Below are positions 15,780 to 16,198 of a stretch of 64,000 nucleotides of DNA, piece by piece (positions within the stretch are counted from its first letter, which is position 1; every line of letters starts with the position of its first letter). Below the pieces are notes generated by a model. That model was not told the origin of the DNA. It did not search any database and worked only from the letters and a program-made list of their open reading frames with translations. The stretch is from Escherichia coli. Lineage in GTDB: Bacteria > Pseudomonadota > Gammaproteobacteria > Enterobacterales > Enterobacteriaceae. The stretch is from NCBI RefSeq assembly GCF_003334405.1, contig NZ_QOWM01000002.1; one strand, written 5' to 3'. The translations under genes were made by a program, and so were the position numbers.

Positions 15780-15971
15780 CCTGCTATGCAAGATGTTAAT
15801 TCCGCTTCTCTTTCTATGAGAAAATTTCATTAATATCAGGCATTCTTTTTCATTATGATCAAAATCATATAATTGTTCCGTTATTATGCGACCATATGAA
15901 TATATCCGAAAAAGGATATGTGAAATTTATACGCTAAATGTTTAGTATTGTTAAATATTAAGGGTAAAAGG

Positions 15972-16142
15972 ATGTTTATCGCCTGGTACTGGATTGTATT
16001 GATTGCTCTGGTTGTGGTGGGTTATTTCCTGCATTTGAAACGTTATTGTCGGGCGTTTCGCCAGGACAGAGACGCACTGCTTGAAGCGCGGAACAAATAC
16101 TTAAACAGTACGAGAGAAGAGACAGCCGAAAAGGTAGAATAA
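15972..16142 (+). CDS. Small single-pass membrane protein (56 aa), identity not recognised
   Basis: ATG at 15972 with AGGG 7 nt upstream; hydrophobic N-terminal helix (FIAWYWIVLIALVVVGYFL) then charged tail; flanked by ribB terminator and a strong hairpin at 16160-16198. Confidence 0.5.
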   Translation: MFIAWYWIVLIALVVVGYFLHLKRYCRAFRQDRDALLEARNKYLNSTREETAEKVE

Positions 16143-16159
16143 GGCTTTCGTGAAGCTGG

Positions 16160-16198
16160 CAGAAGTTGTCCATGCGCTGGACAACTTCTGATGTTGTT
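16160..16198. terminator. Bidirectional hairpin terminator between the small ORF and zupT
   Basis: 13-bp perfect stem cagaagttgtcca / tggacaacttctg with 5-nt loop, followed by ATGTTGTTTTT. Confidence 0.7.

Follow-up and report, generated by a model that had tools for sequence, protein, structure and literature searches.

yqiD, a translated and selected monocistronic gene for a small protein with one hydrophobic helix between ribB and zupT of Escherichia coli

The open reading frame between ribB and zupT in the analysed 64,000-nucleotide stretch of Escherichia coli DNA (hereafter the window) is almost certainly the protein-coding gene yqiD, which specifies a known small membrane protein of this species. 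It is a translated, selected and monocistronic small gene with one hydrophobic helix. Taking all lines of evidence together, we consider it very likely that yqiD is a genuine gene, transcribed on its own, whose 56-residue product is a bitopic protein of the inner membrane; its role might be that of a modulator. The gene is not new: the reading frame was described correctly in an earlier reading of the same DNA (the original prediction), and a study of 2018 had already reported the gene under its name together with proof of its translation.

Identity and annotation of the gene

The reading frame lies on the plus strand, starts with an ATG at 15972 and ends with a stop codon at 16140-16142; the coordinates (15972-16142) and all 56 residues are exactly those of the original prediction. 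RefSeq labels the same bases "yqiD: protein YqiD" (b4756, WP_000469266.1), flanked by ribB and zupT, and both the DNA and the protein are 100% identical to RefSeq yqiD of K-12-derived and many other genomes. Compared with K-12 YqiD, no difference in sequence, position or strand was found. The identifier b4756 is also given as the EcoCyc id of yqiD in a 2026 paper. The original prediction had left open whether the protein was annotated or overlooked; since yqiD is present in RefSeq and EcoCyc under b4756 and WP_000469266.1, the first alternative holds and the second is wrong. The features of the locus are listed below, with the evidence that defines them.

15741..15779, plus strand: ribB intrinsic terminator, hairpin and T-run, delimiting the yqiD unit on its left side in this genome (terminator scan)
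15780..15853, plus strand: AT-rich spacer, not conserved between genomes, with a -35-like TTAATA at 15830-15835 (identity, promoter scan)
15854..15869, plus strand: perfect palindrome TATGATCAAAATCATA, whose left half forms a -10-like TATGAT at 15854-15859 (conservation, promoter scan)
15854..15971, plus strand: conserved 118-nt block that holds the promoter-proximal region and the 5' leader (pairwise identity)
15960..15964, plus strand: Shine-Dalgarno-like AAGGG, 7 nt upstream of the ATG (read from the sequence)
15972..16142, plus strand: yqiD coding sequence, 56 codons and stop (RefSeq CDS 'protein YqiD', WP_000469266.1)
15975..16031, plus strand: predicted transmembrane helix FIAWYWIVLIALVVVGYFL, codons 2-20 (Kyte-Doolittle, AlphaFold2, nearly invariant W5 and W7)
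16032..16100, plus strand: conserved basic juxtamembrane helix HLKRYCRAFRQDRDALLEARNKY, codons 21-43, a proposed interaction surface (invariant residues, dN/dS)
16101..16139, plus strand: variable acidic C-terminal tail, codons 44-56 (identity 0.46, dN 0.95, length variation)
16160..16201, plus strand: yqiD intrinsic terminator, 13-bp hairpin at 16160-16190 and U-rich tail at 16191-16201 (terminator scan, folding)

Translation of yqiD has been demonstrated. In the table of VanOrsdel et al. 2018, yqiD is placed between zupT and ribB with a 56-residue sequence identical to that encoded in the window (PMC6001520). Its product was seen by chromosomal SPA-tagging and immunoblotting of LB cultures, and the gene was also positive in tetracycline ribosome profiling (PMC6001520), so that both experiments which the original prediction had proposed, ribosome profiling and epitope tagging, have a positive outcome in the literature. 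The literature that we searched gave no function, partner, phenotype or localisation for YqiD, and the name mostly denotes an unrelated B. subtilis gene. The remaining value of YqiD is that of one among many validated E. coli small membrane proteins still without a function.

We also considered an upstream TTG at 15948, which would extend the protein to 64 residues, and rejected it. The extension is not conserved, because the divergent (B2) E. coli allele described below carries a frame-breaking 1-nt indel between the TTG and the ATG; the ATG at 15972 is therefore taken as the start, in agreement with RefSeq. It is preceded by the plausible ribosome-binding site that had been predicted, the AAGGG listed above, whose AAGG core is present in all five Escherichia, Salmonella and Citrobacter sequences.

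Selection, distribution and layout of YqiD

The substitution pattern shows that selection acts on the encoded peptide. Set against the divergent E. coli allele and the genes of Salmonella, C. rodentium and C. freundii, the window allele had a dN/dS of 0.04-0.12 over codons 1-43, where synonymous sites were saturated. Most differences fell at third positions; the two E. coli alleles, for instance, differ at 4 first, 7 second and 22 third positions. The region under strong purifying selection comprises the transmembrane helix and the presumably cytoplasmic motif KRYCRAFRQDRDALLEARNK. Codons 44-56, in turn, are free to evolve: the two E. coli alleles have a dN of 0.95 here, the mean nucleotide identity over all pairs is as low as 0.46, and the length of the tail varies across the family.

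The reading frame is also nearly universal in the species. The coding sequence alone was matched in 5425 of the 5426 complete E. coli genomes, which makes yqiD a single-copy core gene, and a megablast search with 15700-16260 gave matches in all 5426. Probably the one genome without a match to the coding sequence is that of strain FCI23, in which an IS1 lies at the locus, no yqiD CDS is annotated and the gene was lost to the IS1 event; yqiD is therefore dispensable, at least in that strain. The element next to zupT in FCI23 is an IS1B (locus L003, 1639-2500). In strain S30, an IS1 is inserted inside the equivalent of 15700-16260. Conservation of the frame and constraint on substitutions were both named as checks in the original prediction, and its reading of the frame as a genuine gene for a small single-pass membrane protein is borne out by purifying selection, near-universal presence and the SPA-tag immunoblot.

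Beyond E. coli, the YqiD family is confined to a few genera of the Enterobacteriaceae. A word-indexed search returned 108 relatives in Escherichia, Citrobacter and Salmonella, and when 1.84 billion cluster representatives were searched exhaustively with a profile that proved family-specific, just 24 proteins reached E <= 0.001. Distant homologues belong to Phytobacter, Kosakonia, Atlantibacter and some Enterobacter or stem from metagenomes. Several of them are named "DUF4051 domain-containing protein" by their sources (UniProt/NCBI) and share with YqiD the transmembrane helix and a K/R-R-x-C-R-A-F/Y-R-Q-D/E-R-D/E-A-L motif. The DUF4051 label comes from these source names alone, as a Pfam-A scan of YqiD gave weak, transmembrane-driven matches (DUF2621 at 8e-4) and no DUF4051 model. 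NCBIfam matches were sub-threshold (18 bits vs a cut-off of 50), the PADLOC models gave no match, and a PDB profile search yielded non-significant matches to UPF0335 chains (E 0.03-0.06) and neither a homologue nor a partner.

The residues of YqiD divide as had been predicted, into an N-terminal hydrophobic helix and a charged tail. Residues 2-20 have a mean Kyte-Doolittle value of 2.43 and zero charged residues, and the 36 residues from 21 to 56 contain 9 Lys/Arg and 7 Asp/Glu. Because all nine basic residues follow the helix and only Met1 precedes it, the positive-inside rule suggests an N-out/C-in topology. An AlphaFold2 model built on a 22-sequence alignment shows one continuous helix over residues 2-55 with a mean pLDDT of 72, reaching 85-88 in the transmembrane part and a modest value of about 60 over residues 21-30. 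In the same alignment, which extends down to 30% identity, M1, I3, W5 and W7 at the start of the transmembrane segment are constant, and R24, A28, R30, R33 and A35 of the juxtamembrane segment are invariant or nearly so; this Arg/Ala stripe is kept even in homologues at 30-40% identity. A metal-binding site formed by His21 and Cys26, appealing beside the gene for a zinc transporter, was rejected as a family feature, since both residues vary in the Kosakonia, Phytobacter and metagenomic homologues.

Promoter region, leader and terminator of yqiD

The yqiD unit is bounded on the left by the ribB terminator, in which a 13-pair stem (15741-15772) is followed by ATTTTTCCCT. The AT-rich stretch of about 190 bp predicted to follow it spans 192 nt up to the start codon (15780-15971) and has a GC content of 28.6% vs 50.6% for the whole window. 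Its first part, the spacer at 15780..15853, shows a mean pairwise identity of 0.41, which equals the background level. Nucleotide homology among Escherichia, Salmonella and Citrobacter then starts abruptly at the palindrome TATGATCAAAATCATA (15854-15869), and homology between the K-12-like and B2 haplotypes of E. coli begins at exactly the same point. From there to the start codon, the 118-nt block has a mean pairwise identity of 0.77, vs 0.54 at third codon positions, 0.41 further upstream and 0.33 in the 3' region; as this is well above the neutral level, the promoter and leader must themselves be constrained. The block is absent upstream of the Phytobacter homologue and of the homologue on a JGI metagenome contig.

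The palindrome is invariant save one spacer base in both E. coli alleles, Salmonella, C. rodentium and C. freundii. The promoter scan returned TTAATA-18-TATGAT, and the palindrome is thus a candidate -10 element and/or operator, judged by its conservation and position; other hexamers could also serve as the -10 element, and the -35 region lacks conservation. We compared the palindrome with the consensus sites of FNR (TTGAT-N4-ATCAA), IHF (WATCAANNNNTTR), Fur, Zur and CRP. It partly resembles those of FNR and IHF, and we claim none of them.

A conserved RNA structure of the leader was considered and rejected: RNAalifold gave -9.3 kcal/mol with unfavourable covariation, and a compensatory change was seen in just 2 of 37 pairs. 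Rfam contains no RNA family that matches the yqiD leader or the strand opposite the gene. Within the leader, a second small inverted repeat, CTAAATGTTTAG, followed by an invariant TGTTAAAT, occupies 15932-15957 on the plus strand, and a two-sided change in C. rodentium preserves its pairing. The leader further contains two GGA motifs, at 15905-15912 and 15962-15976. The latter, GUAAAAGGAUGU, spans the start codon and resembles the CsrA SELEX consensus, RUACARGGAUGU, which we note as an idea only. The GGA is not universal, being GGG in Salmonella and C. rodentium at the first site and GAA in C. freundii at the second.

Two further RNA matches lie towards ribB. The FMN riboswitch RF00050 (120.9 bits, 14805-14953, plus strand) precedes ribB, as expected at this locus. 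A weak sub-threshold match to the Salmonella sRNA STnc240 (29 bits vs a gathering threshold of 55, E = 0.077) covers 15709-15779 on the plus strand, that is, the ribB 3' UTR and terminator, and might reflect either a 3'-UTR-derived sRNA or mere similarity between terminators.

At the other end of the gene, the predicted perfect-stem terminator of 13 bp was recovered as a hairpin at 16160-16190: its 13 pairs are perfect, its loop has 5 nt, and ATGTTGTTTTT follows it. The hairpin folds with -25.1 kcal/mol (z = -4.4), and 0 of 200 shuffled sequences folded as well. The U-rich tail runs into the stop codon (16200-16202, minus strand) of zupT, which occupies 16200-16973 on the minus strand and is convergent to yqiD. 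A hairpin of different sequence is found at the same 3' position in the B2 allele (z = -8.1), Salmonella, C. freundii and the JGI locus, with compensatory base changes between the two E. coli alleles. In the segment between the two genes (16143-16202), a U-run follows the hairpin on the yqiD strand only, leaving zupT with no obvious intrinsic terminator; judging from this arrangement, zupT transcripts might read antisense into yqiD.

These elements suggest the following order of events. Transcription would start just downstream of the -10-like TATGAT at 15854-15859 and give a leader of about 105 nt that is AU-rich and conserved, translation would begin at the ATG at 15972 after the AAGGG Shine-Dalgarno sequence, and transcription would end at the 16160-16190 hairpin. 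Expression of yqiD responds to its promoter sequence, in that natural promoter variants alter it according to an RNA-seq GWAS, a promoter model and a GFP reporter (bioRxiv 10.1101/2025.06.10.658842). In addition, a DUF4051 gene of EAEC 042, orf3334, is one of just three genes up in a mutant of aar, whose product modulates H-NS (PMC5570504). Its DUF4051 label and the single copy of yqiD per genome suggest that orf3334 is the yqiD orthologue.

Genomic context and candidate functions of YqiD

The small single-pass inner-membrane proteins AcrZ (which binds AcrB), MgrB (PhoQ), MgtS (MgtA/PitA), KdpF and CydX act as modulators of larger proteins in E. coli. YqiD resembles them in a length within about 30-60 residues, one transmembrane helix, the lack of an enzymatic domain, a narrow phylogenetic range and a regulated promoter of its own; it has the single transmembrane helix and the fewer than about 60 residues typical of such modulators, its membrane location and topology being predictions. 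It shares no sequence similarity with them in NCBIfam or Pfam, so that the likeness is one of function and not of family. By analogy with these enterobacterial small membrane proteins, it is quite possible, at somewhat less than even chances, that YqiD modulates a larger membrane protein. YqiD would then form probably one continuous helix, with the R24/A28/R30/R33/A35 segment at the cytoplasmic face of the membrane as its functional surface. The transmembrane and juxtamembrane helix would bind a larger protein or complex of the inner membrane and modulate it; specificity would not require the variable acidic tail.

A yqiD homologue adjoins zupT, in convergent orientation, in every full-length locus examined, namely E. 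coli (both haplotypes), Salmonella, C. rodentium, C. freundii, the JGI metagenome contig and Phytobacter. The neighbour on the other side varies: it is ribB in the window, C. freundii, the JGI contig and Phytobacter, a chaperone-usher fimbrial operon in E. coli EcPF14, and assT-dsbL-dsbI, encoding arylsulfotransferase, DsbA-like and DsbB-like proteins, in Salmonella and C. rodentium (loci L005/L006 and L007/L008, 1-3000). Among Escherichia, Salmonella and Citrobacter, the block of leader and coding sequence stays intact while the upstream neighbour changes; rearrangements or insertions have thus recurred in the AT-rich spacer that precedes the palindrome.

The constant adjacency to zupT beside a changing second neighbour, together with an 18-nt overlap of the 3' ends of the yqiD-like and zupT coding regions in Phytobacter (locus L013, 3208-3225), would fit a dedicated accessory or regulatory subunit of the ZIP-family importer ZupT, one that tunes the uptake of zinc or other divalent metals through contacts between transmembrane helices and at the juxtamembrane segment. 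We regard this as improbable. Convergent genes are not co-transcribed, their adjacency can be simple vertical synteny, and the variation of the left junction comes from insertions into the AT-rich spacer and need not mean that yqiD is tied to zupT. The only residues that could plausibly bind a metal, His21 and Cys26, vary among the distant members. Moreover, ZupT is present in many bacteria, far more widely than YqiD with its few enterobacterial genera, and therefore does not need YqiD.

Less likely still is a membrane-depolarising peptide akin to a type I toxin, held in check by the long conserved leader or by antisense transcription from zupT. Like the type I toxins Hok, Ldr, Ibs, TisB, ShoB and DinQ, YqiD is small with a hydrophobic N-terminal helix and a long conserved 5' leader, and the hairpin is followed by no T-run on the minus strand, so that antisense transcription from zupT into yqiD is conceivable. 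It differs from such toxins in that the strongest selection rests on the conserved charged cytoplasmic motif and not on hydrophobicity alone, in being a single-copy core gene, and in lacking both a toxin-family match in NCBIfam or PADLOC and an Rfam antitoxin RNA in or opposite the gene. It is also expressed without stress: the protein is easily seen in LB cultures that were not stressed (PMC6001520), which is evidence against tight repression.

That the frame is translated as a regulatory or leader-type ORF with an irrelevant peptide, or is spurious in an AT-rich spacer, has hardly any probability left: it is short, intergenic and without a recognised domain, but this reading is effectively refuted by a dN/dS far below 1 at saturated synonymous sites, by an amino-acid motif kept in homologues of other genera at 30-40% identity, and by the absence of a same-strand downstream gene to regulate, since a strong terminator follows yqiD.

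A second yqiD allele, WP_001296421.1 ('hypothetical protein' in RefSeq), occurs in about 990 of the 5426 complete E. coli genomes (~18%). It is identical to the K-12-like allele at 66% of protein and about 77-81% of DNA positions with saturated dS, so that the two E. coli alleles are as diverged as those of E. coli and Salmonella. The zupT gene beside either allele encodes the same protein (WP_001295627.1), and from the zupT stop codon on, the DNA sequences agree again (window, 15854-16199; locus L002, 1501-1850; locus L004, 13313-13663). A recombinant allele, P0013, joins a B2-like N-terminal half to a K-12-like C-terminal half.

In EcPF14, which carries the divergent allele, the fimbrial operon is located between ribB and yqiD (locus L004, 7887-12861). 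The fimbrial operon of the window lies on the other side of ubiK-ribB, between glgS and ubiK at about 9150-14110, and its genes include an ORF of 183 aa at 13558-14109 on the minus strand. The operons of the window and of EcPF14 are homologous, at an identity of just 65-75%. The divergent yqiD allele and the relocated fimbrial operon may have been exchanged as one block.

A bolder and unlikely extension is that YqiD is a lineage-specific regulator of metal homeostasis, controlled through the palindromic operator and the 105-nt leader and acting on ZupT or another divalent-cation transporter, and that the K-12-like and B2-like alleles are functionally distinct variants exchanged by recombination. 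If so, the B2-like functional variant would be the allele linked to the relocated Yqi-type fimbrial operon.

For further study, the gene offers several handles: the constrained residues W5, W7, R24, A28, R30, R33 and A35, a taggable, presumably dispensable tail, a delimited promoter and leader with a palindromic candidate operator, the invariant linkage to zupT and the natural allelic dimorphism of yqiD in E. coli.

Two further observations concern the 3' end of the gene. On a short metagenomic contig (locus L012, 1676-1722), a yqiD-like CDS and a convergent ORF share 47 nt. A predicted 125-aa protein, P0123, encoded on a 2-kb Logan contig (locus L015, 1499-1876), combines the N-terminal 70 residues of ZupT with a YqiD-like C-terminus and is most likely an assembly chimera or the product of an inversion at the shared hairpin, and not a natural fusion.
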